Below are positions 36,753-51,380 of a stretch of 64,000 bases of DNA, piece after piece. The translations under genes were made by a program, and so were the position numbers. Numbering within the stretch: the stretch's first letter is position 1; the number at the start of each line of letters is the position of its first letter. Origin of the DNA: Pseudomonadota bacterium. Its GTDB lineage: Bacteria; Myxococcota; JACRCW01; JAFGSX01. Below the pieces are notes generated by a model. It was not told the DNA's origin. It was given only the letters and a program-made list of their open reading frames with translations, and did no database searches. The DNA lies in the NCBI GenBank assembly GCA_043821645.1, contig JBDRCO010000134.1:32001-96000 (forward strand), in the 5' to 3' direction.

Positions 36753-37029
36753 TGTACAAATCCTTGGAGCACGCGCCTTCACGAGGCGAAGTGCCCGAGC
36801 TGAGTTCCGGCTGATTGGAGGAACGGGAGACTTGCCGGGGAGGCTGCCGTCCGGGCCCAATGGACCCTGCATCTGATCCAGACGCGACACCAAGATGAAG
36901 GGTGTCTGTCCAGACCGTGGCGCACTTCGTGCACATCGCACCGCGCCTGTCGAGCCATATATCGCCCGGGCGGCGCCGCGCAGCTCCACGCCAGGGGGTC
37001 TCGAGATCTCGTCGGGCGCGCGACGGGGT

Positions 37030-38319
37030 TCAGGGCCTGGCGGTCAGGGCGCGCTCGACCGCATCCTCGAACACCGCCAGGGGCTTGGCGCCGAAGATCA
37101 CCTCATCGTTGATGACGAACGAGGGCGTGCCACGGAGTCCGGCAGCCCGCGCCTGCTCCTGGTGGCGCGCCAGCATGGCGCCGACCTCGGGACCCGCGGC
37201 ATCGCGGCGCAGCCTCTCGACGTCGAGCCCCAGGCTCGCGGCGCGCCCGAGGACACTGGCGTCGTCGAGGGCGTCCTGGTGGGCGAACAGATCATCGTGA
37301 AGATCGAAGAAGCGCCCCTGAAGGTGCGCAGCCAGGGCCCAGCGCGCCGCGCTCGTGGCATGGGTGTGAAAGGGTAGGGGGTTCATCATCAGGCACACGC
37401 GCAGACGCTTGGGGTAGCGATCCTCGAGGGCGTCAACCGTCTGCTTGGCCATCCCACAGTAGGGGCACTCGAAGTCGGTGAAGGCGACCAGCGTGACCGG
37501 GGCATCCAGCGGGCCACGACAGGGATCCTCGCCGGCGACCGTCACTCCGCCCACCACCCGGGTCCGGCCGGGATCGGCGCTCTGGCCCTGGTGCATCGCC
37601 TGCTGTAGCGCCTGGTACACCAGCGGTCTTGACACACCGGCGGCGAGAGCCAGGTCCGCGTCGCGCAGGGCCAGGCTGAAGGCCTGCTCGAAATCCTCGA
37701 AGGGGCGCATGCCCACCACGCGGTGGCCATTGAAGAAGAAGGTCGGCGTTCCCTTGACCCCGAGCGCCACGGCCTGCTCCTCGTCCCTGTCCACCGCCGC
37801 CAGCACGTCGTCACTCAGGCGATCGCGATCGAAGCGCTCGACGTCGACTCCCGCGTGCCGGGCATGCTGCTGCAGGTCCTCCGCGCCGAGGGCATGCTGG
37901 TGCGCAAAGGCCTTGTCGTGAAAGGGCCAGAACCGACCCTGGCGCTGCGCCGCCACGGCGGCCTCGGCGGCATCCCGGGCGAAGAAGTGCAGGGGCAGCG
38001 GTCGGTGCTTGAAGCACACGCGGAGCTCGCCGGGGTGCTGCTGCTCGAGGGTGTACAGGGTCTCCTGGGCGCGGGCGCAGTGGCTGCATTCGAAGTCCGA
38101 GAACTCGACCACCGTGACCCTCGCATCGACAGCACCGCGGCAGGGTGCCTCACCGAGTTCCACGGCGCGTCGTTCAGGATCTGCTGGCAGCTGCAGTGGC
38201 CGCGGAGCAGAGAGGGTCGCGGGCGTCGGCGAGGCGGACTCGGGAGTGGTCGCGCAGGCCAGGGCGATCCAGGGCAGGAGCCCGCTCGCCCAGACCAGCG
38301 TTCGTCGGAGGCGGGGCAT
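37030..38319 (-). CDS. Lipoprotein with two tandem DsbA/thioredoxin_4 domains
   Basis: Lipobox ALAC, active sites FSDFECSHC and FTDFECPYC, two GTP cis-Pro loops. Confidence 0.9.
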   Translation of the reverse strand: MPRLRRTLVWASGLLPWIALACATTPESASPTPATLSAPRPLQLPADPERRAVELGEAPCRGAVDARVTVVEFSDFECSHCARAQETLYTLEQQHPGELRVCFKHRPLPLHFFARDAAEAAVAAQRQGRFWPFHDKAFAHQHALGAEDLQQHARHAGVDVERFDRDRLSDDVLAAVDRDEEQAVALGVKGTPTFFFNGHRVVGMRPFEDFEQAFSLALRDADLALAAGVSRPLVYQALQQAMHQGQSADPGRTRVVGGVTVAGEDPCRGPLDAPVTLVAFTDFECPYCGMAKQTVDALEDRYPKRLRVCLMMNPLPFHTHATSAARWALAAHLQGRFFDLHDDLFAHQDALDDASVLGRAASLGLDVERLRRDAAGPEVGAMLARHQEQARAAGLRGTPSFVINDEVIFGAKPLAVFEDAVERALTARP

Positions 38320-38413
38320 CACGGGAACTCCTCTTATGAGGTGGTGGACGGGGCACCACAGCCGGGCTGAGCGCTCTGCTGGGCTCGCCCGACCACGATC
38401 GCGCAGCACAGGA

Positions 38414-40135
38414 TCAGGGGCAGGCGTCGAGGCCAAACACGGTGTTGACACGCCCTGCGGTGGGGGCGCCCCGGGAATGGCACCAGTTGCTGTCGAGATC
38501 CGGCGCGTCCGGGTTCAGGCGCTCGGCCGACACGCCCTCGACGAAGTTGTGGCTCTGGTTGTAAAGGCCCGCGGGTGCGCTGTAGCTGGTGACCAGGGGC
38601 GCCGCGGGATCATCGTCGGCACCCTGAAACAGGCCAATGGCCTTGCGCGTACTCTCGCTGTTCTCGATCCCGGACAGCAGGGTCGTGCGTGAGGTGCTCT
38701 CGTCGGTGAGCAGCAACGCCGCCTGGGGCACACCCAGGCTCACGGCGTCAAAACGATCACGTGCTCCCACCACCGCGTAGTTGCCGGGAGCCAGGGTGGT
38801 GGGGCCTCCGCTCGCCATGGGTGCCAGATTCATGGAGGCCGAGCCGTCGAGCTTGCGTAGGCTGAAGGCCGCGAGGTCGTAGCTCTCGCTCTCCGAGGCG
38901 TTGAAGATCTCGATGAACTCGTAGTAGGGCTCCGACTCGCCCGCCGGGCCTGGCATGGGGTTGGGATAGACCTCGTTGAGCACGAGCCGGGGCAGGCGCT
39001 GCGTGGTCAGCGGGTAAGGACCATTGATCAGTGGCGGGTTTGCGTAGGCGTCCAGGGACTCCACCGCGTAGTAGTAGGTGCGGCCGTTGCTCCCTCCGAG
39101 ATCGAGGCCGTCCACCACCACCACGTGCGCACAGCGCCGGGCGGCGCCCGAACCTTCGCAGCGCGAGGCCGGGACACCCACCACGCGTCGGGTCATGGCG
39201 CTGGCCGAATCACCGATGCGAACCACCGAGGTCGAGGGCTCATCGGTCTCCCAGCGAATGTCCGCGCTGTCCTCTGAGGCCACGGCGAGTGGTCCGCTGG
39301 TCAGCCGCGGAGGCGACAGGTCGGGCTGGGGCAAGGCTTGCAGGCCGCGGGAGTAGGCGACCAGGGGGACCCCATCCTCGTCGGTGATCGCACTGGTGGC
39401 GCGGAGTGTGTAAAGCGCGGCCGGGCACAAGGTGTAGCAGGCGCCACCGAGGTCCCCCAGGCGCAGGGTGGCCCGGGTTCGCTCGGCGTTCAGTTCGACG
39501 GCCTGTATCTCGGGTGTGGTGCCCGCGCCGTCCGCGACCAGGTTCAAGGACTGGTGGTTCACGCCGTACACGGGCTGGTCGAACTCGACCACGAGGGTGC
39601 GCAAGTTGGGCGGCACCTCTGCCGGGTTGCCACCGGGCAGGTCGGTGCTCACGACCTGGGGCGCACCGTCGTCGGTGACGAAGTCGTAGCGGAAGTGACT
39701 GGCCAGTCCGTCGTAGCCGACCAGCGGGTTGTTGTTCTCGTCGCTGACCTTCTCGCTGATGACCAGGGTCAGCTCGGTCGAGGGGGGCATGGGGTCGACT
39801 GGTGTCAGGCGCACGGTGGTGCTCCCGTCGGTGACGGCGAGGGTCAGCTCGAGGTGAGCCCGCGACAGGGGCGGATTGTTGAGATCGGAGATGAAGCTGT
39901 CGGTGACGCTGCTGGTCTCGGCGATGACGAGGTAGTCCGTGGTCAGGCGCAGCTTGGACATCGGCTCGCTGAAGCGGACCTCGAGGCTGTCGGTGGTGCG
40001 CACGGCGCGCGCGCCCGGCGATACCCCCACGACCCGCGGCGGAATGGCGTCTCCCGCGTCGATGTTGGTGTCGGGCAGACAGGCGCCGACCAGGAGGCCG
40101 GGCGTCACGAGCAAGACGGCGAATGCGGATCGCAT
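38414..40135 (-). CDS. Lipoprotein with Ig-like (Big_5) domains, an FN3-like domain and a C-terminal lamin-tail domain
   Basis: Lipobox VGAC, then VRFSEPM, VEFDQPV and WETDEPS. LTD motif LVLNEVYPNP....EFIEIFN and terminal TAGRVN. Confidence 0.8.
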   Translation of the reverse strand: MRSAFAVLLVTPGLLVGACLPDTNIDAGDAIPPRVVGVSPGARAVRTTDSLEVRFSEPMSKLRLTTDYLVIAETSSVTDSFISDLNNPPLSRAHLELTLAVTDGSTTVRLTPVDPMPPSTELTLVISEKVSDENNNPLVGYDGLASHFRYDFVTDDGAPQVVSTDLPGGNPAEVPPNLRTLVVEFDQPVYGVNHQSLNLVADGAGTTPEIQAVELNAERTRATLRLGDLGGACYTLCPAALYTLRATSAITDEDGVPLVAYSRGLQALPQPDLSPPRLTSGPLAVASEDSADIRWETDEPSTSVVRIGDSASAMTRRVVGVPASRCEGSGAARRCAHVVVVDGLDLGGSNGRTYYYAVESLDAYANPPLINGPYPLTTQRLPRLVLNEVYPNPMPGPAGESEPYYEFIEIFNASESESYDLAAFSLRKLDGSASMNLAPMASGGPTTLAPGNYAVVGARDRFDAVSLGVPQAALLLTDESTSRTTLLSGIENSESTRKAIGLFQGADDDPAAPLVTSYSAPAGLYNQSHNFVEGVSAERLNPDAPDLDSNWCHSRGAPTAGRVNTVFGLDACP

Positions 40136-40154
40136 GGCAGGACCTCTCGAACTC

Positions 40155-41012
40155 TCAGTAGGGGTCGCGGCCTATCGACTTGAGCCGGCTGGAGAACTCT
40201 CCTCCGGTCAGGGCGTCGATGTCCGCGGTCAGCTCCTGCAGCCGGAGCTCCTTGCGCACGCGGTCGGCCATCTCGGTCGGCGGGGCGAGGTCGACCTCGA
40301 TCTGCAGGCGCCGCCGCTCGAAGTAGCGCCGGGTGACCTCGTCCAGCACGTCGTCACGGTAGCGTTGCAGGCGCAGCGCCTCGCGGTTGACCTTGGGCTC
40401 CTCGGGATCGAACACGGCCCGGTCCAGGTCCCAGCGTGCACGCAGGCGCATCTGCCAGTTGTCGTACTTGTACTTGGCAAAGCGATCGGGTTGGCCCACC
40501 TCCTCGAACACGCGCTCGGTGCTGTCCCAGTCCTTGACCAGGGCAGCCTCGAACTGTGGCGCGAAGGCACGGTTGGCGGCCCGGGCGCGCCAGCCGTCGA
40601 TGCGGTCCGGGTGTGCACGCGCATAGGCCACCGCGGAATCCTGCACCTCGCGGATGCTGGGTTCGCCCGCGTAGGGCTTGAGGGCGGCACGCACCTGGGA
40701 GCTGGTGACGGTGCTGCCCGGTCGCACGACCAGGGCCTGATCCTTGCCCAGCGTGATCTGACCCCGGAGCTTGGCCACCGTGCCCGCCGAGATCCCCTGC
40801 ACACGTGTCAGCTCCTCGACGCTCTCGAAGGGCCCGTTGCGGTCGCGGTCGCTGACGATCTCCTCGGCCAGCTTAGGGCCGATGCCGGGGAGGGACTGCA
40901 GCTCGGACGCTCCGGCAGTGTTGATGTCGATGGTCTGGCCCCAGGCCAGGGCACTGACCAGCGTCGCGGCAAGCAGGGCGCATGGTCGAGAGCAGGTTCG
41001 GAATCGTGCCAT
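40155..41012 (-). CDS. Secreted ComEA-type helix-hairpin-helix protein fused to a TolC-repeat-like C-terminal domain
   Basis: Signal peptide and IDINTA...ELQSLPGIGPKLAEEIV.DR..NGPF.SVEELTRVQGI (HHH_3). The C-terminal ~170 aa are paralogous to those of the neighbouring gene. Start after GAGGAG. Confidence 0.85.
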   Translation of the reverse strand: MARFRTCSRPCALLAATLVSALAWGQTIDINTAGASELQSLPGIGPKLAEEIVSDRDRNGPFESVEELTRVQGISAGTVAKLRGQITLGKDQALVVRPGSTVTSSQVRAALKPYAGEPSIREVQDSAVAYARAHPDRIDGWRARAANRAFAPQFEAALVKDWDSTERVFEEVGQPDRFAKYKYDNWQMRLRARWDLDRAVFDPEEPKVNREALRLQRYRDDVLDEVTRRYFERRRLQIEVDLAPPTEMADRVRKELRLQELTADIDALTGGEFSSRLKSIGRDPY

Positions 41013-41050
41013 CTCGTTCTCCTCGAGCGGACACCTGCCGGGCGTCCGGT

Positions 41051-43009
41051 TCAATCCACCTTGATGTTGCGGCTCCGCGCAGGGTGCGCATCATCGTCGT
41101 GCGCGTCGTCGACACGCGTTGTTCCGTCGTAGGAGACCCCGAGCACCGTCTCGGCGCCGCGTGCCCGAGCCTCCCGGGAGAAGTAGCCACCGGTGCTGGC
41201 ATCGAGCTGGGCGGTGTACTCGAGCAGCTTGAGCAGACGGCGGGCCTCGATGGCGGTCTCGCGCGATCGCCGGGCCACGACCTGGGCCAGGGACCGCTGG
41301 CGCGCGGTGTAGGCGCGCATCACCCGCGATGTGATCTTGTCCCGGCGGCTGGCCAGCCTGCCCTCCTCGCGGCTCACGGCGGTCGCCTGTGAAGGAGCCA
41401 GGATGGCGTCGAAGTCCCAGCTCAGGGTTGCCCAGGCGGAGGTCACGACGCGCGAGCGCTGGTACATGGGCTCCTGGTCGTAGATATCGCCGTAAAAGTC
41501 CGCGAACTCATCCAGCACCTCGAGGCCCTGGGTCCCGCCGAGGCCCCAGCCTATACCGTCGTCCCGCACACGCAGATGGCGAGCCACGACATCGACGCGG
41601 GGCAGGGCGGCGGCCAGCTGTGCCCGCTGCAGCTCCCACTGTGCGCGCCGGGCCTCGACGCGATCGTAGGTGATGGCAGCCTGGACCACCTCATCGAGGG
41701 TTGGCTCGCGCTTGACCACGTCCTCATAGCGACGGCGGATCAGCTTGATGCCGCTCTGACCCGAGCCCTTGATGCGCCGGAACAGTCCGCGATCGGTGGC
41801 AGCCCAGAGCACCTGGGTGGCACGGCCATCCAGCGACACGTCCACCGCACCGTGCACGTCGCCTTCTGCCAGCAGGTTGGTGACCTCCCCGCGCTTGGGA
41901 TGAAGCAGGTACAGGCCGCGCCGGGCCGCGATGGCCACCGGACCGCTGGGCTGGGCGCTCACCACCACGCGTTCGATCTGATCGTGCTCCCCCAGATCGA
42001 CGGGTGTGAACAGGCTCTCTCCCATGCCAGCGCGCAGCAGGTCTCGGCCGGTGCCAACGTACAGGTCGTGGTGGTGCGGGTCGTACGCCACGCTGGACAC
42101 GGGCTGGTCGCGATCACCTCCTGCCAGCAACTGCAGCAGGTAGGTGCGCCCGGCGTCATCGCTCCGGTAGAGGCCCTGTTCCGTGCCAACCAGGACGGTG
42201 CTGGTGGCGTCCGGGAGCATGAGCACGCACAGGGCGGCCTCGTGACCGGGGTGACCTGGAAGCGCTGTCCAGCTGAAGCCGCCATCGAGGCTCTCGAGGG
42301 CGCCTGCGCGGGTCGCCACGATCAGGTGCGTCGGGATGGCGGGGTTGATCGCAACATCGCGCACGTCGAGAGCGCCGCGGCCATGGGGCAGGGGCACGGC
42401 GTCGAAATGATCTCCACGATCGATCGAACGGAACAGGCCCATGGGCGTGGCTGCGTAGACCACATCGGGGTCGCCCGGGGCGAAGCGCAGGGTGCGCACA
42501 CCAGGCAAGGTGCGTGCGAAGACCGGCTTCTCCTCTCCGGAGAAGGATCCGTCTGGCAGGTTGTCGTCTTCCTCGAGGTCGAGTTCGCCCGCGGGCAGAC
42601 CATCGTCCAGCTCGACCTCTTCTTCCTCCTCTTCTGCCACCTCGTCGCTGTCCAGATCCTCGCGATCCACGGTCTCGTCGCCGGTGCGAGAGGCCTCGTC
42701 GTCCGCCAGGTCCTGCAGCTGGTCCTCGAGCCTGTCCCGGTCCGCTCCGCTCAGCTGGTCGCCGGGAAGACCGAAGCGAAAACTCAACACGATGCGCCAG
42801 GTCTCGCCGCCATCATCGGTCTTGAAGACCCGCCCATCGACACCGGCCAGGGCCAGGTCCCCGTCGCGGGGATGCACGGCCACGGCGGTGATGCGGTCGG
42901 TCTCGAGACCGTAGGTGAGGTCTGCCAGGTGATAGGCGTCTGCCGCGCCGAGGGACAGCACCCACAGCCAGGCTCCCAGTACCGCCCCCATGCGCCACAG
43001 CCGTCTCAT
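41051..43009 (-). CDS. Secreted BNR/Asp-box beta-propeller protein with an acidic insert and a TolC-repeat-like C-terminal domain
   Basis: Asp boxes KTDDGGETW, RSIDRGDHF, ESLDGGFSW and RSDDAGRTY. C-terminal EPTLDEV...ALPRV...LSWDFD...LDASTGGYF. Confidence 0.8.
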   Translation of the reverse strand: MRRLWRMGAVLGAWLWVLSLGAADAYHLADLTYGLETDRITAVAVHPRDGDLALAGVDGRVFKTDDGGETWRIVLSFRFGLPGDQLSGADRDRLEDQLQDLADDEASRTGDETVDREDLDSDEVAEEEEEEVELDDGLPAGELDLEEDDNLPDGSFSGEEKPVFARTLPGVRTLRFAPGDPDVVYAATPMGLFRSIDRGDHFDAVPLPHGRGALDVRDVAINPAIPTHLIVATRAGALESLDGGFSWTALPGHPGHEAALCVLMLPDATSTVLVGTEQGLYRSDDAGRTYLLQLLAGGDRDQPVSSVAYDPHHHDLYVGTGRDLLRAGMGESLFTPVDLGEHDQIERVVVSAQPSGPVAIAARRGLYLLHPKRGEVTNLLAEGDVHGAVDVSLDGRATQVLWAATDRGLFRRIKGSGQSGIKLIRRRYEDVVKREPTLDEVVQAAITYDRVEARRAQWELQRAQLAAALPRVDVVARHLRVRDDGIGWGLGGTQGLEVLDEFADFYGDIYDQEPMYQRSRVVTSAWATLSWDFDAILAPSQATAVSREEGRLASRRDKITSRVMRAYTARQRSLAQVVARRSRETAIEARRLLKLLEYTAQLDASTGGYFSREARARGAETVLGVSYDGTTRVDDAHDDDAHPARSRNIKVD

Positions 43010-43155
43010 CGGTCCTCTGTATTCGCGTCGTCGACGAACTCGCGCTGCTTGAGCGTACGGGAGCCGAGGTCCCGACGTCAACTGGCGCAAGGGTCTCCCA
43101 CGATTCTGGCCTTGAGAGAGGTGAATGGACGTCGCGGCCGCGCTACAGTGATTCC

Positions 43156-44367
43156 ATGCGTCTCCCTTTCACTCTGGTCGCGCTTGTGTCGGCAGCCTGT
43201 GCGCCACCGCCACAGCTGGTGGCCGTGGAGCCCACCCAGGGACCCACCGCGCAGGAGGTGGCCCTTGTGGTGACCGGGCACGACCTGGTGCCTGGCCTGA
43301 CGCTCGAACTCGTGGGTCAAGCCTTTCGATTCGCGCTCCGCGTCGACGAGGTGGCTGCGGACCAGGTGCGGGCCGTCATCCCTGCGGGAGTGGACGCTGC
43401 CCGCTACGACCTGGTGGTCCGCAATCCAGACGGCGCAGACGACAGGCTGGCCGCGGCCTACCAGGCGGTGGACGCGGTGCTCACGGTGGTGGTGCTGGAT
43501 GTGGGGCAGGGCGCGTCTCTGCTCGCGGTGGGCAGCGACGGCAGCAGCCTGCTGGTGGATGGGGGCAAGGAGGGACGCGCCGCCTCGGTGTTGCGCCCGG
43601 CATTGGCGCGCTACAGCCAGGGCCAACTCGATACGGTGGTGGTCACCCATTTTGACGTGGACCACATGGGTGGCATCGCTGAGTGGATGGAGGGGCCGGA
43701 TGGCCTGGCCGGGACGGACGACGATCCCGCGCTCCCGGGCGGGCTGTGGGACAACGGCGGAGCAGCGGACTGCACCACCGACATCTGCCGGCGCTACCGC
43801 GTGGCCGCCGCCGGTCGCGCGCACACCATCGTGCCGGGACAGACCTTCGCCCTTGGCGCGGCCTCGGCGCGCTGCGTGATCGTGGGTGGCCACATCGAGG
43901 GTGGGCCACAGCTCAGCCCGGCCGATGACAATGCGTCCAGCGTCGGGCTGCTGTTCGAGATGGCTGGGAAAAGAGTGCTGGTGAGTGGCGACCTGCCTGG
44001 CGGTGGCCTGGGAAGCCAGGACTTCGAGACGCCCCTGGCGCAGGTCCTCGGGCCCATCGACGTGTGGCACCTCAACCACCACGGATCCGCAACAGCCACG
44101 GCCCAGAGCGCGCTCGACCTGCATGCCCCACGGCTCGCCCTGATCCCCGTCGACACCGATAACGCGTACTGCCACCCCGCCCAGGAGGTGGTGGACAGGC
44201 TGCAGGTGCGCGCGCTGCCGGTGTACCTCACGGGGGCTGGCACGGTCACACCCTCGACGGCCTGTCCTCAGACCACGCAGCTCGGACCGCAGATGAAGGT
44301 TGTCGGGGAGATCCGGCTCGAGATCGACGCCGCGGGCGCGCTGACGGTCAACGGCGCGCCGCTCTGA
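43156..44367 (+). CDS. Lipoprotein: Ig/IPT-like domain + ComEC/Rec2-type metallo-beta-lactamase (putative nuclease)
   Basis: Lipobox SAAC, then LDVGQG, LVDGG, THFDVDHMGG, N..S, GDL, HHGS and N.YCHP. No Competence membrane domain. Confidence 0.85.
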   Translation: MRLPFTLVALVSAACAPPPQLVAVEPTQGPTAQEVALVVTGHDLVPGLTLELVGQAFRFALRVDEVAADQVRAVIPAGVDAARYDLVVRNPDGADDRLAAAYQAVDAVLTVVVLDVGQGASLLAVGSDGSSLLVDGGKEGRAASVLRPALARYSQGQLDTVVVTHFDVDHMGGIAEWMEGPDGLAGTDDDPALPGGLWDNGGAADCTTDICRRYRVAAAGRAHTIVPGQTFALGAASARCVIVGGHIEGGPQLSPADDNASSVGLLFEMAGKRVLVSGDLPGGGLGSQDFETPLAQVLGPIDVWHLNHHGSATATAQSALDLHAPRLALIPVDTDNAYCHPAQEVVDRLQVRALPVYLTGAGTVTPSTACPQTTQLGPQMKVVGEIRLEIDAAGALTVNGAPL

Positions 44368-47056
44368 ACCGTCGGGAGCGGTGCCAGGTACCCACCAGGA
44401 GGATCAGGAGCCATAGCCCGGATGCGGGGCGGCTCGCGGTGCAGTCACAACCCTCGGCGGCAGCGGGATCCAGGGCGGCCCCGGGTTCTGCGAGCGGACG
44501 ATTCCCCTTGGCAGTGGGCCAGCGCGGAGGGATGGCGCCCTGGCTCCAGTGTGCGACATTGCCTGCCTCGTCCAGGACCTCGACCTCGATGTGGTGAGTG
44601 CTCGGTGGAGCGCCGTCGAGCCTGATGGGATCGAGTCCAGTCTGGGAATGAACCCTCGTCCCATCCACCCGGACCTGGAGCCGCAGATCCTCGTCGGGGG
44701 TGACCCCGTCGTGGGCGACGACCTGAAGCAGGCGGCCCGCCCTGTCGAGGCTCACCTGCAGCGTCGGGGCCACGGGATCCACGATCACCTCGAGCACGGC
44801 CGGGCTGAGATCCAGGGTCGACGGTGCGCCCACGCGGCGTCCGCGCACCTCGATGCGGTGCCGGCCCATCAGCTGCAGCAGGGGGTCGGTCACGTGCAGC
44901 ACCTGCCCGCGGTGGAAGGGGCGCCAGAAGCCCCCGTCAACGCGGTGGCTGAACTCCAGGTCATCCCCGTCGTGATCGCGCGCACTCACGTCGAGTTCGA
45001 GCAGTGGCCCCTGCACGCCCTGCGGGCTGGAGACGTGAAAGGCCTCGGCCGCGGGTTGTTCGAAGCGGCGCACGCCGACCACGGTGTCGACGCTGTAGCG
45101 CAGGGGTGAGCCCACCTGCGCCGGGTCAAAGCGAAGGTTCGAGAAGATGCCCATGAACTCGAACACCGGGTTCCCCAGCGCGTCGACGACGGGAGTGCTG
45201 CCGTCCAGGCGCTGCTGCACTCCGCGAAGGGTCAGACCCTCGAGGGCGAAGCCCGCCAGGTCGGGCAGCGCGATGGTCTGGGTAAGGTCGGGGGCGAACT
45301 GGCCCAGCATGGCGCCAATGAGCGCGGGCACCGCGGCCTCGATGTCCTCGGGCGGATCGGTGAGCAACTCGCTGTTGAGCACCTGCACGTCCTGTATCCA
45401 GTCCTCGACGCCGCTGACCAGCACCAGCATGTTGCCCTGGCCGTCGTCGTCGAGGCCGATGCCGATGCGCAGGTTGGCGCGCATGGTCATGAAGCGCAGA
45501 TAGCGGTCGTCGACCAGACCGTACAGGTCCAGGTCCAGGTCGTGGGCGTGCAAGGTCAACAGCGGCTTGTCGAGGATGGTGCGGTTGGGGTCCGAGGGAT
45601 CCACGGCGGTGGTCCCCAGGCCGATGTCCGCGACGATGGGCGCGCGCGGCAAGATCTCGATGAGGGCGGGCTTGGCACCGCCCCGGGTGATGTTGCCCAG
45701 GGAGCTGGCCAGCAGCCCCAGGGCGCCGGTGTTGATGTACGATGACAGGCCCGAATCGATGCGCTGGCAAAAGGCGCCGGACTGCACCGCGCCGCGCGCC
45801 ACCTGGTCGAGCATGCGGTCTGCCACCGCGATGCCGACCATGAAGGGCGTGTCTGCGCCGGTCTCGGGGTGCGGTACGCTGTTGCCGAAGTTCAGGCGCG
45901 GGGGCACCGGGAGCGGTGTATCCATGGGGGGGACGCACAGGCTGGCCTGCACATCCGTGCCGCCGCGCATGCCCAGTTCGATACCCTCGGCCACGACCTC
46001 GGCGTAGCCTCCGGCAGCTATCGACACACCCACGGCTTCGGTGGCCTGGCCTGCGAAGGCGCCGAGCATGCCGGCGAGATCCATCCCGCCCTCGACGCCC
46101 ATGAGCGTGGGCACATAGCGACCGCCGGAGGCAAAGTGGCAGCGCTTGTCTCCGTCACAGGTGGTGGCCACGGCGGCTGTGCACTGGGCCGGTGGATCGC
46201 AGCTCTCGACCATGGCGTCGGTCATGGCGCCGGTGAGTGAGCTGTTGAGCTGATCGCGCAGGCTGTCCTCGAACAGGGGGAACAGCAGGGGCATGAGCAG
46301 CTCGGCCGCACCGCAGCCCAGCCAGCTCCCGATGCCGCCCGAACTCTTGATCTCGAGGTCGCTTTCCGAAAAGGGGATATCGGGATCGCCAAACTCCAGC
46401 TCCAGGCGCTGCAGCGGGTTGTCCGTTCGCATGTTCAGGTCCATCGCCATAGCGCGCTGCTTGCGCAGGATCTGCACGTCGCAGTCCGGAGCCGGGCTGA
46501 GGCAGCACCACGGACGACCCCAGCTGCAGTCGTCCTCGAGCACCAGGGGGAGCCAGGTCGAGTAGGCCTCGGTCTGCACGGTCACATCGATGGTCGCTGG
46601 CGCCGTGGGAGCCAGGGCCACCGAAAGCAGGTGCACGTAGGCCCGGCACTGATCGCTCGACGGGTTCTCGCAGATCGCGACTTTTTTCCAGCAGCCGCTG
46701 TCGGTGACACTGGACGGAACCTTGAAGCCGAGCACCGGCTGGACCACGCCGTTCTGCTCGCAGTGGCTGCCGTCGATGCAGCTCATGCCGCTGGGACAGG
46801 GAAGATAATCGGGACTGCTCGAATCGCAGGGGAAGGACGCGAAGCTCTGGATGATGGCCGGCAGGTTGCTCTCCAGGAAGGCCACGCCCGAGGGGGTGAG
46901 CCTGACCTGAGCCGCGCCATTGAACTTGCGCGATTCGGGGAAGGGCTGATCCAGGGGAGCCAGGCAGCCCCCGCAATCGGTGGCGCCACAGGCGCCGAGG
47001 CCAAGCGCGAGGGTCAGCAGACCCAGGCGCCGGACGAGTCCAGCTTTCACCGTCAT
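44348..47056 (-). CDS. Large Cys-rich lipoprotein with probable BPI/LBP (TULIP)-like region and MYXO-CTERM
   Basis: Lipobox LGAC, AAQVRLTPSGVAFLE (BPI N-terminus-like), FSHRVDGGFWRPF Ig-like module, C-terminal EGCDC-hydrophobic-RR tail. The fold call is inference. Confidence 0.65.
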   Translation of the reverse strand: MTVKAGLVRRLGLLTLALGLGACGATDCGGCLAPLDQPFPESRKFNGAAQVRLTPSGVAFLESNLPAIIQSFASFPCDSSSPDYLPCPSGMSCIDGSHCEQNGVVQPVLGFKVPSSVTDSGCWKKVAICENPSSDQCRAYVHLLSVALAPTAPATIDVTVQTEAYSTWLPLVLEDDCSWGRPWCCLSPAPDCDVQILRKQRAMAMDLNMRTDNPLQRLELEFGDPDIPFSESDLEIKSSGGIGSWLGCGAAELLMPLLFPLFEDSLRDQLNSSLTGAMTDAMVESCDPPAQCTAAVATTCDGDKRCHFASGGRYVPTLMGVEGGMDLAGMLGAFAGQATEAVGVSIAAGGYAEVVAEGIELGMRGGTDVQASLCVPPMDTPLPVPPRLNFGNSVPHPETGADTPFMVGIAVADRMLDQVARGAVQSGAFCQRIDSGLSSYINTGALGLLASSLGNITRGGAKPALIEILPRAPIVADIGLGTTAVDPSDPNRTILDKPLLTLHAHDLDLDLYGLVDDRYLRFMTMRANLRIGIGLDDDGQGNMLVLVSGVEDWIQDVQVLNSELLTDPPEDIEAAVPALIGAMLGQFAPDLTQTIALPDLAGFALEGLTLRGVQQRLDGSTPVVDALGNPVFEFMGIFSNLRFDPAQVGSPLRYSVDTVVGVRRFEQPAAEAFHVSSPQGVQGPLLELDVSARDHDGDDLEFSHRVDGGFWRPFHRGQVLHVTDPLLQLMGRHRIEVRGRRVGAPSTLDLSPAVLEVIVDPVAPTLQVSLDRAGRLLQVVAHDGVTPDEDLRLQVRVDGTRVHSQTGLDPIRLDGAPPSTHHIEVEVLDEAGNVAHWSQGAIPPRWPTAKGNRPLAEPGAALDPAAAEGCDCTASRPASGLWLLILLVGTWHRSRRFRAARR

Positions 47057-47186: not shown

Positions 47187-49565
47187 TCATGGGAACGCGG
47201 GCATGTTGGGGTAGGTGCTGGTCTGAACGAGGTCCAGGCCGCCGGGATAGGCATAGCTGACGTAGTCGTCATAGCCATAGTTGAAGATGCCGAAGCGCTC
47301 GCCCCGGGCCTGCGGGTTGGCGGTGAGCACCGAGCTCATGGTGTGGGCGCCCCGGGCCAGGCGCAGGGTCATGCGCATGTAGCTGGTGCCCGCAATGGCC
47401 ACCGGGGCCTCGGCCAGGCAGTTGGTATTGGCTCCGGCCACGCAGGCGATGCCAGGCACCGTGGCGGCACCGTCGAGGAGGATGCTGCTGTTGGTGTTGT
47501 AGACCACGGTGACGTAGTCCACGTAGTAGGTGTCCGGCGTCAAGAACGAGTAGTCGTAGCGGTACTGCTCGACGGGGATGAGCTGTGACAGCGCGGGATC
47601 TCCGGCGTGGGAGCCGTAGGAGTTGAGACCCGTGGCCTCCTGACCGGCGAAGATCGCGCCGACCAGGATGGGCGCCTGGGCCATGATGCGAAAGCTGTCC
47701 TTGGAGCCGAACTCGCAGTAGCCACCCTCGTTGAGGATGAAGGACCCGTCGCTGGCCATGGGGCAGGTCGGGGTGCTGGCGGCGTGCGCTGCGGCCACAT
47801 CACCGGGCTTGGGGAGCACCTGGATGCGGTTGGTCGCCGCCGAGGAGACGAAGCGATAGTACATGCGCTCCTGGTTGGTGGCGCCGGTGGCCGTGTTGCG
47901 CATCTTGGGCATGGCGCCGATGTACTCGGTGCCCCAGGTCTCGATGGGCAGGAGCATCTCCTCCATGTGGTCGCAGGCCTCTTTCTTTTCCGGGATGTAG
48001 GCACACTCGTGCAGGCCGAACACACCGATGGGCTTGTCCGCGGCGACCAGCACGCCCGTGGGATCCGGTGCCGAGGTCTTGTACGCGGTCATCAGCTGGA
48101 ACACCTGGTTGGCGTTGAGGGTCAGGCGCAGCTCCTCGGGGTAGCTGCTGTCGTTGCCGAAGTTGGGCAGGCCGTTCTCGATCTTGAAGTCGTTGGACGC
48201 CTGGCCCGGACGCTTGCGCACGGCGATGCGGGTGCCGTCCTCGGCCGCGACCACGGCGAGACCGGCGGGAGCGGATGCCGCTTCATTCTGCTGCATGCCG
48301 AGGAAACCTGCCGACCAGGTACGGTGGGGGCCCGAGACCACGAAGTAGGCCTGGCGCCACGCCGTGGTGGGGATCAGCAGTGACGCGTCATTGGTGTAGG
48401 CGAAGTTGCAGCAGATGGGATTGAACAGGTAGGCACTCACCGGCAGCGACGCCACCAGGTGATAGCTCTTGTCGAACACGCCGGAGCCGTGGGCGATGTC
48501 GTTGGGCAGCAGCAAGGTGGCGATGCCACCGGCGGGCAAGGTGAGGTCCGCCGCACTCTGGCTGTCGACGTTGGTCGCATTGCTTCCCACCGAGATCTTG
48601 GAGTGGACGTCCTGCGGTGTTCCGGATCCTCCTGGCGCGCGGTCGGTGACGTGGCGCATGGGGGGGAGCGTCAGGGCGTTGCCGGAGGGACCGCTAAGGG
48701 TCAGGTGCACATCCTGGTCACTGGTGTTGGCCACCACGACGGCTGCGGGGAAGGGGTCCGAGCCGGCCCCGAGATCGCTGTCGATGTTGTTGTCGGTGAT
48801 GGCGAAGCGGTAGTCGCAGGCGATGTAGCTCTTGGTCACGGCGGCGAGGTCGCAGGCCGTGGCGCACAGCGCGCCGTCGGCGTGGGTGCTGTCGGTGACG
48901 CAGACCGCGCCCTGAGCTGTGTTGCAGTCCACGGGGTTGCTCGCAGCCGTGCCATAGGTGCCGCAGTCCGCGATGGTGTCGCTGTCGACGCAGAACTTGC
49001 GGCCCTCGGTGCAGACCACCTGCTGGCATGCGTCGCCCACGCAGACCTGGTCGGTGCGGCACTGGTCGTCGAAGATGGCGGTACCCGCGGGCGAGCAGCG
49101 GCGCACCTGGCGCGTGCCCTCGCTGATGCACTCGGTGACCGCGCCGGGCGTGCAGATCTGGGGCACGCACTCGCCGACGCCGGTGCAACCCGTGCCTGAG
49201 CCGCACGGATCGGAGCTGTAGTCCAGACCGGTCGCTGAGCACAGCTTGCGCTCACCGTCGCCACCACAGAAGTGGCTCAAAGGTACGCAGATGGTCGGCG
49301 CGCAGGTGCCGGACATGCAGGCGGTGCCACCCGGGCAGGGCTCGTCCATCTTGGCCGTGCCGTTGCCGTTGCAGGTCGACAGGGTGCTGGCGTCGAGGCA
49401 CGAGGTCGCGAAGGGGGTGCAGATCTGGTCCTTGCACTCACCGCCGAGACAGACCTGGGTGTCGCTGCACTTGCCTCCGCAGGCGTCCACCGGTTGTGGT
49501 GGCTCTGTCGGCTGGCAGGCCAGCAGCGCTGCACAAACAGTCAGGCAACCCATCCACCTCATCAT
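47187..49565 (-). CDS. Lipoprotein with Cys-rich repeats and an IgGFc-binding-protein N-terminal-type domain
   Basis: GGAGG RBS before MMRWMG and lipobox LLAC. C.P....C repeats, then KSYIACDY, FAYTNDASLLIP, ACDHMEEMLLP, GDPALSQLIPVEQY and YVSYAYPGG. Confidence 0.85.
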   Translation of the reverse strand: MMRWMGCLTVCAALLACQPTEPPQPVDACGGKCSDTQVCLGGECKDQICTPFATSCLDASTLSTCNGNGTAKMDEPCPGGTACMSGTCAPTICVPLSHFCGGDGERKLCSATGLDYSSDPCGSGTGCTGVGECVPQICTPGAVTECISEGTRQVRRCSPAGTAIFDDQCRTDQVCVGDACQQVVCTEGRKFCVDSDTIADCGTYGTAASNPVDCNTAQGAVCVTDSTHADGALCATACDLAAVTKSYIACDYRFAITDNNIDSDLGAGSDPFPAAVVVANTSDQDVHLTLSGPSGNALTLPPMRHVTDRAPGGSGTPQDVHSKISVGSNATNVDSQSAADLTLPAGGIATLLLPNDIAHGSGVFDKSYHLVASLPVSAYLFNPICCNFAYTNDASLLIPTTAWRQAYFVVSGPHRTWSAGFLGMQQNEAASAPAGLAVVAAEDGTRIAVRKRPGQASNDFKIENGLPNFGNDSSYPEELRLTLNANQVFQLMTAYKTSAPDPTGVLVAADKPIGVFGLHECAYIPEKKEACDHMEEMLLPIETWGTEYIGAMPKMRNTATGATNQERMYYRFVSSAATNRIQVLPKPGDVAAAHAASTPTCPMASDGSFILNEGGYCEFGSKDSFRIMAQAPILVGAIFAGQEATGLNSYGSHAGDPALSQLIPVEQYRYDYSFLTPDTYYVDYVTVVYNTNSSILLDGAATVPGIACVAGANTNCLAEAPVAIAGTSYMRMTLRLARGAHTMSSVLTANPQARGERFGIFNYGYDDYVSYAYPGGLDLVQTSTYPNMPAFP

Positions 49566-49653
49566 GATCGACCTCCACGCATGTCCGGGGCGCGAGCCTA
49601 GCACAGGGCTTGCGGGTGCGTCTGCAAGGCTCGGGGGTGGGGTGGGAGCAGGG

Positions 49654-51380
49654 CTAAAAGCGCACACAGCCTTCCATGGTCGCGCTCGCGCTGGCCCCGT
49701 AGCCCAGGTCGCCCTTGCCACTGAGTGCGCCCTTGACCATGTCGACCACGTCCATGCCGGCCTGGTAGGCGTCCATGGGCGAGTCGGTCTCGAACTCGCC
49801 ACCTTCCCAGCGCCCGGTGTTGGGGTTGTAGCGGTTCTCGATGTCGTAGCCGATGCCACCAGGAACATCGATGCCGCCCGACGAGCTGATGCCCGTGCAG
49901 CGCGACACGCGGAACTCGCCGTCGACCCCGTAACCCATGATCTCCAGGCCGCCCTCGGCCTTGACCGAGAAGTCGTTGCTCTCGCGGATGTCGCCAAAGG
50001 GGTCGAAGTCGAACCCATTGCCAACCCCCACACCCAGCTCGGCGCAGGCGGACAGGCCGTCCTCGTCCACGCATAGCTCGCCACCGCCGCCGACCACGGC
50101 AAAGAAGCTCCCGCCGACGCAGAACAAGCCCGTGGGGTCGGCGTGGCCCACGGGGTCGCTGCCTGCGTAGGCGTAGAGGTGGTACTGGCCGCCGTTGAAC
50201 AACTTGAGATCGGTGGAGGTGAAGCGGCCGGCCTCGGGGTCGTAGTCGCGCAGGCCCAGGCGCGTGAGGCCGGTCAGCGTGTCCTCGAGGCCGCCGCCGA
50301 AGCCCAGCACCACGTCCAGGGCCGGAGCGCTGTCCGCGAGCAGGCGGCCAAAGCTGTCGCGGTCCACGCGCTTGACGAGCGCGCCGCTTGCGTCGAACAC
50401 CGCGCGCACCGTGCCGACCTGGTCCGTGGCCAGGTAGTAGCGGGTGGCGCCGCGATCCATGGCCAGGGCAGCGCTCATGTCATCGTAGGTGTAGATCTGC
50501 AGGGTGTCGTCGGCCAGGCGCACGGCCAGCGGTCGCCACCAGGCGCCCGGCGTACCGTACAGCACCTGGACATCACCCGCAGCGTCGTGCCGGGAGACCC
50601 GGCGGCCCGCGCCGTCGTAACCGTAGTCCACGCTGTCGCTGCCCACCGTGGCCTCGAGCAGCTCACCGCGCACCCCGTACACGAAGCTGTCGCTGCCGCG
50701 CAGGGCCAGCTGCCCGTCGTCGTCGAGGGTGTAGTCCGCGCCTCCGACCATGGCGATGCGATCGCGCAGGTCATAGCTGCTGGTCTCGGCGCTGGCGCCG
50801 TCGTAGGCGCGCGAGGTGCGATTGCCGCGCGCGTCGTAGGTGTAGGTCTCGACCACGACGCTGTCGCGCGTCACCTGGACCAGGTGATCGAACTCGTCGT
50901 AGGCGTAGCTCCAGGTTGTGGTCACGCCGTCGAGCAGCTCGATCCGCTCGACCACGCGGTCCAGCAGGTCCAGCGTCAGGTCCAGCTGGTAGCGCACCAC
51001 GCTGCCCACGCTCAGGCTCTTGTGCACCAGCCGGCCGTACTCGTCGCGCCCCAGCACCAGCTCGGCCGCGGCGTCGTGCATGGCCGAGGCTGAACCCAGG
51101 GGCCCATCCCGCGCGATGGTCCAGTCGCCGTAACCGACGACGTGCAGCGCCGCATCGTAGGCCAGGCCCCAGTGCGCGCTGTCGCTGCCGCTGGTCAGAT
51201 CCATGGCGCTGGGAAGCATGAGCGTGTCGTAGCTCAGGTCGAGGCGACCCTGGGCGGCGCCGCGGCTCTCGATGGCCGTTGGCAGCCCGCCATCGCTGAA
51301 GTGCACCAGCGTGTGCGAGACGTCGCTGACCAGCGAGCGGAAGCTGATGGAGGAGGTCCCTCCGCAGCACGCTGCATCAC
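49654..51380 (-). CDS. C-terminal part of the teneurin-like YD/RHS protein: YD repeats, RHS core and 156-aa tip
   Basis: YD repeats (YAYDEFDHL, YTYDARGNR, YGYDGAGRR) and core RDYDPEAGRF...YAYAGSDPVGHADPTG. No good independent start; the frame is open up to the upstream gene end. Confidence 0.8.

Follow-up and report, generated by a model that had tools for sequence, protein, structure and literature searches.

A candidate single-repeat TolC-like domain joined to ComEA-type and propeller domains in a recurrent envelope gene cluster of Myxococcota

Gene content of the locus

We analysed a 64,000-nt stretch of the assembly GCA_043821645.1 (contig JBDRCO010000134.1, positions 32,001-96,000 of the forward strand), here called the window, whose own numbering is used for all coordinates. 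Our subject is a cluster of four genes at 38414-44367 that encode predicted envelope proteins: a protein with a ComEA-type helix-hairpin-helix (HhH) domain, a propeller protein, a lipoprotein with Big_5 and lamin-tail (LTD) domains, and a lipoprotein with a ComEC-type metallo-beta-lactamase (MBL) domain. The HhH and propeller proteins end in paralogous domains (C-domains), and there is good but not conclusive evidence that each is a diverged single repeat of the type found in TolC and other outer-membrane factors (OMF). Three genes are co-oriented and the fourth is divergent, exactly as an earlier sequence-based note on this DNA (the original prediction) had placed them, and the GC content by codon position agrees:

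38414-40135, minus strand: Big_5 and LTD lipoprotein, 573 aa; Big_5 at nt 39716-40051, LTD at nt 38726-38992
40155-41012, minus strand: exported fusion of ComEA-type HhH and half-TolC-like domains, 285 aa; the open reading frame (ORF) extends to 41054
40752-40937, minus strand: ComEA-type tandem HhH, residues 26-87 of the HhH protein
40158-40715, minus strand: half-TolC-like C-domain, residues 100-285 of the HhH protein
41051-43009, minus strand: exported propeller protein, 652 aa; the ORF extends to 43090; GC at third codon positions (GC3) 0.81
41768-42934, minus strand: beta-propeller domain, residues 26-414 of the propeller protein
41135-41764, minus strand: half-TolC-like C-domain, residues 416-625 of the propeller protein
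43156-44367, plus strand: ComEC-type MBL lipoprotein, divergently transcribed, 403 aa; MBL residues 109-365 (nt 43480-44250)

The genes of the minus-strand trio lie 19 to 38 bp apart, or overlap if translation of the HhH gene begins at its upstream TTG; in relatives a 4-bp overlap of the propeller and HhH genes is frequent, which fits co-expression of the two paralogues. A scan of 36800-44600 for promoters and terminators gave no promoter-like site and one terminator-like site, situated within the LTD gene and scoring no higher than in shuffled sequence. Export of all four proteins, which had been proposed before, was judged by inspection of the N-termini alone: two carry a lipobox-like cysteine after a hydrophobic N-terminus (LLVGAC, VSAAC), the other two have signal peptides ending in an AxA-like motif, and both patterns are kept in relatives. 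The four-gene arrangement is beyond chance because it recurs in many genomes.

The shared C-terminal domain

The paralogous domains of the propeller and HhH proteins are about 185 aa long (hhalign 99.8%, E 2e-29, 186 columns), and in every locus the C-terminus of the propeller protein cross-matches that of the HhH protein by tblastn. The AlphaFold2 (AF2) models of the two proteins, with a mean predicted local distance difference test score (pLDDT) of 84.8 for the HhH protein and 78.3 for the propeller protein, give the C-domain as a helix, a beta-hairpin with strands of 15-17 residues, a helix of about 39 residues leading back, and a return helix; this modelled layout is that of one TolC repeat. 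In the HhH protein the elements are helix 120-150, hairpin 153-169/177-193, long helix 204-242, and helix 248-269; in the propeller protein they are helices, a hairpin 471-485/516-530 with an inserted loop, and long helices 540-579 and 585-606. Both models have one hairpin per chain, and two tandem repeats per chain were not found in the family: each of the 150 best of 3740 representatives holds a single C-terminal stretch. Hydrophobic positions alternate on both strands (150-162 and 186-196 in the HhH protein), conserved prolines stand at both strand-helix junctions, the W/F pattern resembles an aromatic girdle, and the hairpin tips are variable, polar, and rich in D, N, and T. W194 of the HhH protein, near the inner end, is invariant, and P152 and P203 are kept in 81 and 69 of 82 sequences, respectively.

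The C-domain has no Pfam or NCBIfam model; a sequence-profile search of the PDB was also empty, and the ESM Atlas returned only unnamed Myxococcota clusters. For comparison we drew outer membrane efflux protein (OEP, PF02321) repeats from this genome and 40 others. An alignment of 118 merged C-domain sequences from three architectures scored 23.8% by hhalign against 10 OEP repeats and 86.9% (P 4e-6, 81 columns) against 39 OEP repeats, and 90.0% (P 1.6e-6) once members from other phyla were added. Taken alone, four C-domain subfamilies scored 76.9, 48.4, 86.5, and 46.1%, all on the same OEP columns (about 27-113); the 48.4% (P 1.8e-4) is that of the propeller subfamily against the 39 repeats, and for the C-domain of the HhH protein the values range from 76.9 to 90%. 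The controls gave 0.4-0.5% for reversed alignments, at most 0.5% for 20 column shuffles, and at most 0.1% for three unrelated alignments, and the C-domain scored 0.3% against 30 Skp/OmpH sequences.

Comparison of structures gives a less clear-cut picture, with Z values that are unremarkable by themselves. Residues 116-278 of the C-domain model align with residues 21-215 of TolC, its first half, at a root-mean-square deviation (rmsd) of 5.4 Å, and TolC, TOprJ1, OprJ, OprN, CusC, and OprM align over 155-170 C-domain residues with Z 5.2-5.5 and rmsd 5.4-8.7 Å. These TolC-family chains cover the whole domain, whereas matches to helical bundles cover only about 95 of its residues. A co-fold of three copies of each C-domain with ESMFold2 scored 0.56 (runs 0.54, 0.56, and 0.58), graded as weak support, with 0.00 for the best of three controls; the runs share at least 87% of their contacts, and partner pLDDT is 62 or more. 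Of 157 solved complexes 116 reach the tool's mark, as against 2 of 215 mismatched pairs, and scores of 0.60 or less belong to only 18 of those 157 complexes and to both passing mismatches; the score comes from our own alignments and from a job unlike those of the calibration, and it was returned without a geometry.

Taken together, these comparisons are good but not conclusive evidence that the C-domain is a diverged single repeat of the OMF type. The earlier proposal of half-TolC domains common to the propeller and HhH proteins is supported by their paralogy and by the hhalign values of 87-90% to OEP repeats, a likeness that Pfam and NCBIfam miss.

The HhH domain and the propeller

The N-terminal domain of the HhH protein matches HHH_3 (PF12836; 3e-21, 75.7 bits against a cut-off of 27) and the model of the ComEA HhH region, TIGR00426 (62.1 bits against 53.1). 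The full-length ComEA model TIGR01259 scores below its cut-off (65.2 bits against 152.35) and is matched at positions 57-120 only. Superposed on ComEA of G. stearothermophilus (8dss) with VIA-align, the domain gives Z 13.8 and rmsd 0.9 Å over 65 residues with 43% identity; it scores on PsbU too, with Z about 6. In the first hairpin G43, G45, and K47 are invariant or almost so. Near-length homologues of the whole protein number 353 at E<=1e-3, with coverage of 91-100% and identity of about 45-85%.

The propeller of the second protein has about seven blades in the AF2 model, as counted from DSSP strands, and matches GH74, Ycf48, and WD40 structures in Foldseek at E 1e-13 to 1e-10, those of GH74 and Ycf48 at 1e-13 to 1e-11. 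Its sequence matches are below threshold (Sortilin-Vps10, 23.4 against 33; F510_1955, 72 against 175). Full-length homologues of the protein are P0122-P0129, and homologues carry PF14870, PF15902, and PF02012. A disordered acidic insert stands between blades at residues 80-160 (nt 42530-42772), with pLDDT below 50 over 105-158. Its counterpart in all 19 aligned homologues is likewise rich in D/E and variable in sequence, closing with a conserved LP(E/D)GS-like motif; the insert might be a DNA mimic or a cation binder.

The LTD and MBL lipoproteins

The 573-aa lipoprotein matches Big_5 at 2e-14 and LTD (PF00932) at 1.4e-6, the latter with 29.1 bits and thus under the cut-off of 34.3. LTD is confirmed at the level of the family, being matched by 10 of 14 aligned members (best 6.2e-20); Big_5 is matched by 12 of 14.

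The divergent lipoprotein matches Lactamase_B (2.7e-13, 50.7 bits against a cut-off of 22.7), and its best relatives in the PDB are the MBL domains of ComEC, 9ic4 (1.7e-13) and 30bt (6e-12). The motifs DVGQG, LVDGG, THxDxDHxGG, SGD (SGD/SAD), and HHGS align with those two domains, the metal-site set being intact; the Asp of G-Q-G-D is replaced by Ala (DVGQGAS). The N-terminal domain is weakly IPT/TIG-like, the Competence channel domain (PF03772) has no match in the protein, and the ComEC equivalog TIGR00361 scores 61.3 bits against a cut-off of 190.05. Phosphorylcholine esterases (Pce/CbpE) are also matched, at E around 1e-3. Profile searches, AF2 models, and Foldseek agree with the domains first assigned to the cluster: a ComEA-type HhH, a propeller, a Big_5 and LTD lipoprotein, and a ComEC-type MBL without the Competence channel.

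Conservation of the gene neighbourhood

By its own terms the original prediction would have been refuted by a lack of conserved co-occurrence in other genomes; the genes do recur together. Our HhH-fusion set comprises 17 loci that truly encode a relative, two further loci having been spurious short matches. All 14 loci whose upstream sequence is available have the propeller-C-domain gene immediately 5' of the HhH gene. An LTD-family gene comes immediately after the HhH gene in 11 of 16 loci (the exceptions are L002, L003, L004, L006, and L012), and of the 10 loci in which the flank is long enough, 8 have a divergent MBL gene, L005 and L015 being the two without it.

To this we added a survey of the phylum with one locus from each of 56 carriers, a non-random sample picked among 139 for family diversity and scored with hidden Markov models (HMMs) built from Myxococcota sequences. 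The loci fall into four classes:

Class A, propeller-C-domain and HhH-C-domain genes as in the window: 9 loci, LTD gene adjacent in 8 of 9
Class B, propeller-C-domain gene and a C-domain gene without HhH: 10 loci, LTD gene adjacent in 1 of 10
Class C, HhH-C-domain gene alone: 7 loci, LTD gene adjacent in 2 of 7
Class D, stand-alone C-domain: 30 loci, LTD gene adjacent in 25 of 30

In total, 36 of the 56 loci have an LTD-family gene immediately after the C-domain gene. HhH is found in 16 and the propeller in 19, and an MBL gene lies within the flank in nine, six of which belong to class A (6 of its 9 loci). The widely conserved core is the C-domain gene with the LTD lipoprotein, and HhH, propeller, and MBL are lineage-specific additions. 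Of the four-gene set as originally proposed, the recurrence in relatives stands; as a unit it is one elaborated variant on this core.

Genes of DNA metabolism recur beside the module. The order (yebC)-ruvC(-ruvA-ruvB) follows within 1 kb downstream and in the same direction in 14 of the 56 loci, in several families, coming after the LTD or C-domain gene (L007, L008, L009, L013, L014, L016, L038, L040, L189, L193, L196, L206, L215, and L218). In L031 and L199 yebC follows a stand-alone C-domain gene. The gene polA adjoins the HhH-C-domain gene in three of the 56 (L032, L033, and L045), all in small genomes (1-2.5 Mb, GC 0.45-0.48).

In other phyla, 530 relatives were found and 80 metagenome loci of propeller-C-domain genes kept, each with a single full C-domain gene. 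No HhH-fusion, LTD, MBL, or 906-aa relative (the last being the family of a lipoprotein described below) was found in these 80 loci with the Myxococcota-derived HMMs, which may miss distant forms. A Pfam scan of 65 neighbours in 26 of the loci showed a tetratricopeptide-repeat gene and then polA downstream in six (L103, L109, L121, L129, L143, and L149), a ComM/Mg-chelatase-like gene directly upstream in three (L118, L133, and L135), and a UvrA-like gene directly upstream in two (L083 and L087), plus one partial; ribonucleotide reductase was seen once and ftsQ-ftsA twice. These neighbours agree in direction with the HhH and MBL domains; as housekeeping genes in related loci, they are suggestive only.

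Distribution of the C-domain family

A profile of 16 C-domains matched 3740 representative clusters (50% identity) with an E-value limit of 1e-3; the number falls to 2791 with a limit of 1e-10 and to 714 with one of 1e-30. The family comes in stand-alone, HhH-fused, and propeller-fused forms: of 100 representatives scanned with Pfam, 16 carry HHH_3, 21 propeller families, 62 nothing, and one a stray match, and no Pfam family covers the C-domain in any of them. Within the phylum, C-domains are matched in 139 of 401 sampled genomes and 68 of 154 genera. By family, they occur in 51 of 67 genomes of f15, 15 of 21 of f10 (genomes of 1-2.5 Mb), and 11 of 11 of f18, and in none of the 172 sampled genomes of f11 (about 9 Mb). 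Several carriers are complete single-contig genomes of 4-6 Mb. About a dozen of the f15 matches are flagged as having one TGA inside. In L212 the flagged region lies beyond the end of the HMM match, so that this may be read-through past the stop of a shorter gene.

The long homologues are propeller-C-domain proteins (298 at E<=1e-3), and their source names, by record, include Omnitrophica, Nitrospirae, Deferribacteres, and Thermodesulfobacteriota. LTD stands in the same ORF in four of 120 listed long homologues. Three proteins of about 750 aa (P0257, P0306, and P0336) have LTD, then a PEP-CTERM motif (at about 190-214), then the propeller and the C-domain; the internal position of the motif suggests two genes called as one, or use as a signal-anchor.

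Competence genes in carrier genomes

The ComEC channel (PF03772) has no match in the present genome, which is 94.7% complete; the genome holds two secretin genes and five HHH_3 matches. Across the phylum PF03772 is present in 368 of 401 genomes (a tally that includes G195, flagged unpublished), among them the same-family relative G029, so that the gap here may be an assembly gap. We had read this gap as evidence against hand-over of DNA to ComEC and dropped that reading in view of the 368 genomes. PF03772 is found in the module-carrying families f18 (10 of 11), f15 (57 of 67), and f10 (16 of 21), and in 161 of the 172 f11 genomes, all of them without the C-domain. The last figure shows ComEC to be independent of the module. 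A complementary distribution of module and ComEC across the phylum genomes was looked for and not found; with ComEC present in most carrier families and in the same-family relative, the module is neither a substitute for ComEC nor tied to it, and hand-over of DNA to ComEC is conceivable. The original inference of DNA handling without a type IV pilus secretin does not carry over to the genome, which has two secretin genes.

Adjacent genes

Two further lipoprotein genes border the cluster:

44348-47056, minus strand: 902-aa lipoprotein, convergent with the MBL gene; candidate accessory member of the module
37030-38319, minus strand: tandem DsbA-like thioredoxin lipoprotein (DSBA 6e-42, two stretches), directly after the LTD gene

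The 902-aa lipoprotein has no Pfam or NCBIfam match, and its family (the 906-aa family) lies beside the module in 8 of the 56 phylum loci. As a lead only, its ESM Atlas model resembles clusters of the eukaryotic LBP/BPI/CETP fold (TM 0.73-0.76, residues about 14-650). At its C-terminus a stretch rich in Cys precedes a hydrophobic helix and basic residues, an arrangement that we take to be MYXO-CTERM-like, though no model match supports this label. The DsbA-like gene is possibly co-transcribed with the LTD gene. Because the LTD and MBL proteins are Cys-rich, a dedicated disulfide oxidoreductase is plausible; the position 3' of the LTD gene is occupied in the same way in L001 only.

Upstream on the same strand, the region 47187-56101 (minus) holds an ORF with an IgGFc-binding domain (971 aa) and a pair of RHS/teneurin YD-shell ORFs of 550 and 1574 aa; the ensemble resembles a surface or polymorphic-toxin-type locus. 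In L001, too, the IgGFc-binding gene adjoins the 906-aa-family gene. Elsewhere in the window, the ORF table lists an ORF of 2472 aa at 17693-25111 (plus strand) with a strong coding GC3 of 0.85.

A tentative model and its alternatives

We put forward, tentatively and with confidence just short of even, that the cluster encodes an outer-membrane assembly of TolC-like build, in which a DNA receptor is kept close to a nuclease, for the capture and processing of DNA in the envelope. Six half-repeats would together make up a 12-stranded barrel in the outer membrane, continued as in TolC by a helical tunnel in the periplasm, with three copies of each paralogue here and a homo-hexamer in single-gene lineages. 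By TolC topology the HhH domain and the propeller would hang in the periplasm below the outer membrane; on that account the original idea of capture at the surface is not supported. The HhH domain would bind double-stranded DNA non-specifically as ComEA does, the MBL lipoprotein would cut DNA in the manner of the ComEC C-terminal domain, and the LTD lipoprotein would be the constant partner of the C-domain anchor. The purpose may be to scavenge nucleotides, or to supply DNA for uptake and recombination. That the barrel itself lets DNA through is speculative. Still bolder, and in our judgement improbable, is the extension to a whole family of single-repeat TolC-like channels serving as a secretin-independent DNA conduit with ComEA-like ratchet and ComEC-like nuclease, with hetero-hexamers in some Myxococcota as a living intermediate of TolC duplication, homo-hexamers elsewhere, and a coupling to yebC-ruvCAB, polA, comM-like, and uvrA-like genes.

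A number of observations weigh against the model. As to the barrel, Pfam at E<=10 on 20 family members gave no OEP match, and a PF02321 scan of this genome found 15 matches elsewhere and none on the contig of the window. Shallow C-domain alignments scored 0.2% and 2.6% against OEP by hhalign, values of 87-90% being reached with the deeper, merged alignments alone, and the OEP alignment covers only about 81 of the roughly 185 C-domain columns. Foldseek against the PDB returned OMF chains (OprN, OprJ, CmeC, OprM, and TolC) at E 0.03-0.4 and none better; in an unbiased VIA search helical bundles (Z 6-8) rank over TolC chains, none of which is in the top 50, and a Z around 5.4 is within the range of common arrangements. 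Amphipathic strands alone do not tell apart a barrel that faces lipid and a small soluble one whose core is hydrophobic, and the co-assembly prediction is weak and yields no barrel geometry. Nor is any inner-membrane transporter or adaptor conserved beside the module in the 56 and 26 loci. As to DNA, most relatives of the HhH protein have a degenerate second hairpin, and most members of the C-domain family, including the 30 stand-alone loci of the 56, lack both HhH and a nearby MBL, so that the ancestral function need not concern DNA. The adjacency to ruvCAB, polA, and uvrA may be inherited synteny, since these are housekeeping genes, the loci are related, and the sample was picked for diversity.

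The main rival is a general envelope anchor to which DNA parts were added later. The C-domain would then be an outer-membrane anchor or scaffold without a DNA role, tethering varied periplasmic domains and pairing with the Big_5/LTD lipoprotein for envelope structure or surface display; HhH would be a structural or polyanion-binding piece, as in PsbU, and the MBL would cleave some other phosphodiester, e.g., in a glycan or a teichoic-acid-like polymer. The phylum core of C-domain and LTD only (36 of 56), the 30 loci without HhH, the 80 of 80 loci in other phyla with a lone propeller-C-domain gene by our HMMs, and the matches to PsbU and to Pce/CbpE all suit it. We nevertheless consider it rather unlikely, as the HhH domain is far nearer to ComEA (43% identity, Z 13.8) than to PsbU, the ComEC nuclease domains surpass other MBL relatives by at least eight orders of magnitude with their motifs kept, and the module recurs beside ruvCAB, polA, comM-like, and uvrA-like genes in separate lineages. 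Quite improbable, more so than the family-wide conduit above, is a dedicated route of natural transformation, in which DNA would enter through the half-TolC barrel and not a secretin, be ratcheted by the ComEA-like domain, trimmed by the MBL, and handed over to ComEC. ComEA-type and ComEC-type domains are indeed present, the ComEC channel is common in the phylum and in the carrier families f18, f15, and f10, and a ComM-like gene adjoins in 3 of 26 loci of other phyla. Against this stand the lack of a PF03772 match in a 94.7%-complete genome, the two secretins and other HHH_3 proteins through which a canonical route may exist, and the f11 genomes with ComEC and without the C-domain; the lumen of a TolC-sized channel would probably be tight for duplex DNA.

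Two other alternatives concern the nature of the C-domain itself. A soluble periplasmic oligomer of the "jellyfish" (prefoldin- or Skp-like) kind, whose body would be a small beta-barrel and whose arms would be coiled coils, and which would merely multimerise the HhH and propeller domains, has some appeal, the helix/beta-hairpin/helix topology being common to prefoldin- and Skp-like chaperones, the C-domain helices highly charged (RRYFERRRLQ, KELRLQELTAD), and helical bundles ahead of TolC in the unbiased fold search. It fares poorly by sequence (0.3% to Skp/OmpH against 87-90% to OEP repeats), by its shorter span of structural matches (about 95 residues against the whole domain), and by the strands of 15-17 residues with their girdle-like W/F pattern and variable D/N-rich tips; we rate it as very improbable, below the transformation route. 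The least probable of all, to our minds, is an exit duct, a TolC-like channel exporting, e.g., the nuclease, the LTD protein, or matrix DNA, with the fused domains as adaptors. TolC-family proteins are exit ducts, and L009 has an FHA/HlyD-like protein a few kb downstream of the module; that HlyD-like gene lies past ruvB on the other strand and is confined to close relatives, and a conserved inner-membrane transporter or adaptor is missing from the surveyed loci.

Should the model of a TolC-like assembly with receptor and nuclease hold, the C-domain family would be a large unannotated branch of the TolC superfamily (3740 clusters at 50% identity) with channels made from half-size subunits, and lineages with two paralogous genes would show at first hand how TolC may have come by its two-repeat protomer. 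We know of no earlier case of a ComEA-type receptor covalently joined to an outer-membrane component, and the literature searched held no description of such a fusion, of the domain family, or of the gene set, in line with the original remark that no described system with these genes was known. The cluster points to a new means by which the envelope could hold DNA and process it, and the ComEC-type nuclease lipoprotein together with the recurrent placement beside ruvCAB and polA makes this a testable proposal. The carrier lineages are predatory or sediment bacteria, for which DNA is plausible as a nutrient or a repair template. Genetics would be feasible if the carriers with complete genomes are cultured isolates.

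Comparison with known systems

With uptake through the PilQ secretin and type IV pilus, the module would share the logic of an outer-membrane conduit and a periplasmic DNA-binding ratchet (ComEA). It differs in having no secretin, pilin, or ATPase gene, and in a receptor covalently fused to the putative outer-membrane component, transport being hypothetical. ComEA itself shares with the HhH protein of the window the tandem HhH DNA-binding domain; in place of ComEA's N-terminal membrane anchor/oligomerisation domain the window protein has the C-terminal half-TolC-like domain, and in most of its relatives the second hairpin is degenerate.

The C-terminal MBL domain of ComEC, for which nuclease activity is reported (PMC8579336, PMC12455585), is the closest PDB sequence relative of the window MBL, with the motif set aligned. 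The window MBL is, unlike it, a stand-alone lipoprotein with an Ig-like N-terminal domain, and without the oligonucleotide/oligosaccharide-binding (OB) fold and the Competence channel. LTD-bearing extracellular nucleases of the ExeM/NucH type (PMC6085458 for ExeM) likewise carry a lamin-tail domain on an exported protein in a DNA-degrading context. The LTD protein of the window has no nuclease domain of its own, the separate MBL lipoprotein being the nuclease candidate, and its type is a constant neighbour of the half-TolC-like gene.

The closest parallel for the C-domain is with TolC and the other OMF proteins, with which it shares, in the models, a helix up, two long barrel strands, a long helix down, and a return helix, as well as an amphipathic hairpin with prolines at both strand-helix junctions. 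The OEP HMM is blind to the C-domain, its helices carry far more charge, neither an adaptor nor a transporter is apparent as a partner, and an HhH domain or a propeller is fused to its N-terminus. TolC has two repeats per chain and the C-domain proteins one; because each polypeptide contributes a single repeat, a 12-stranded barrel would need six chains, not three. What TolC holds as two fused repeats would thus be supplied here by two paralogous genes.

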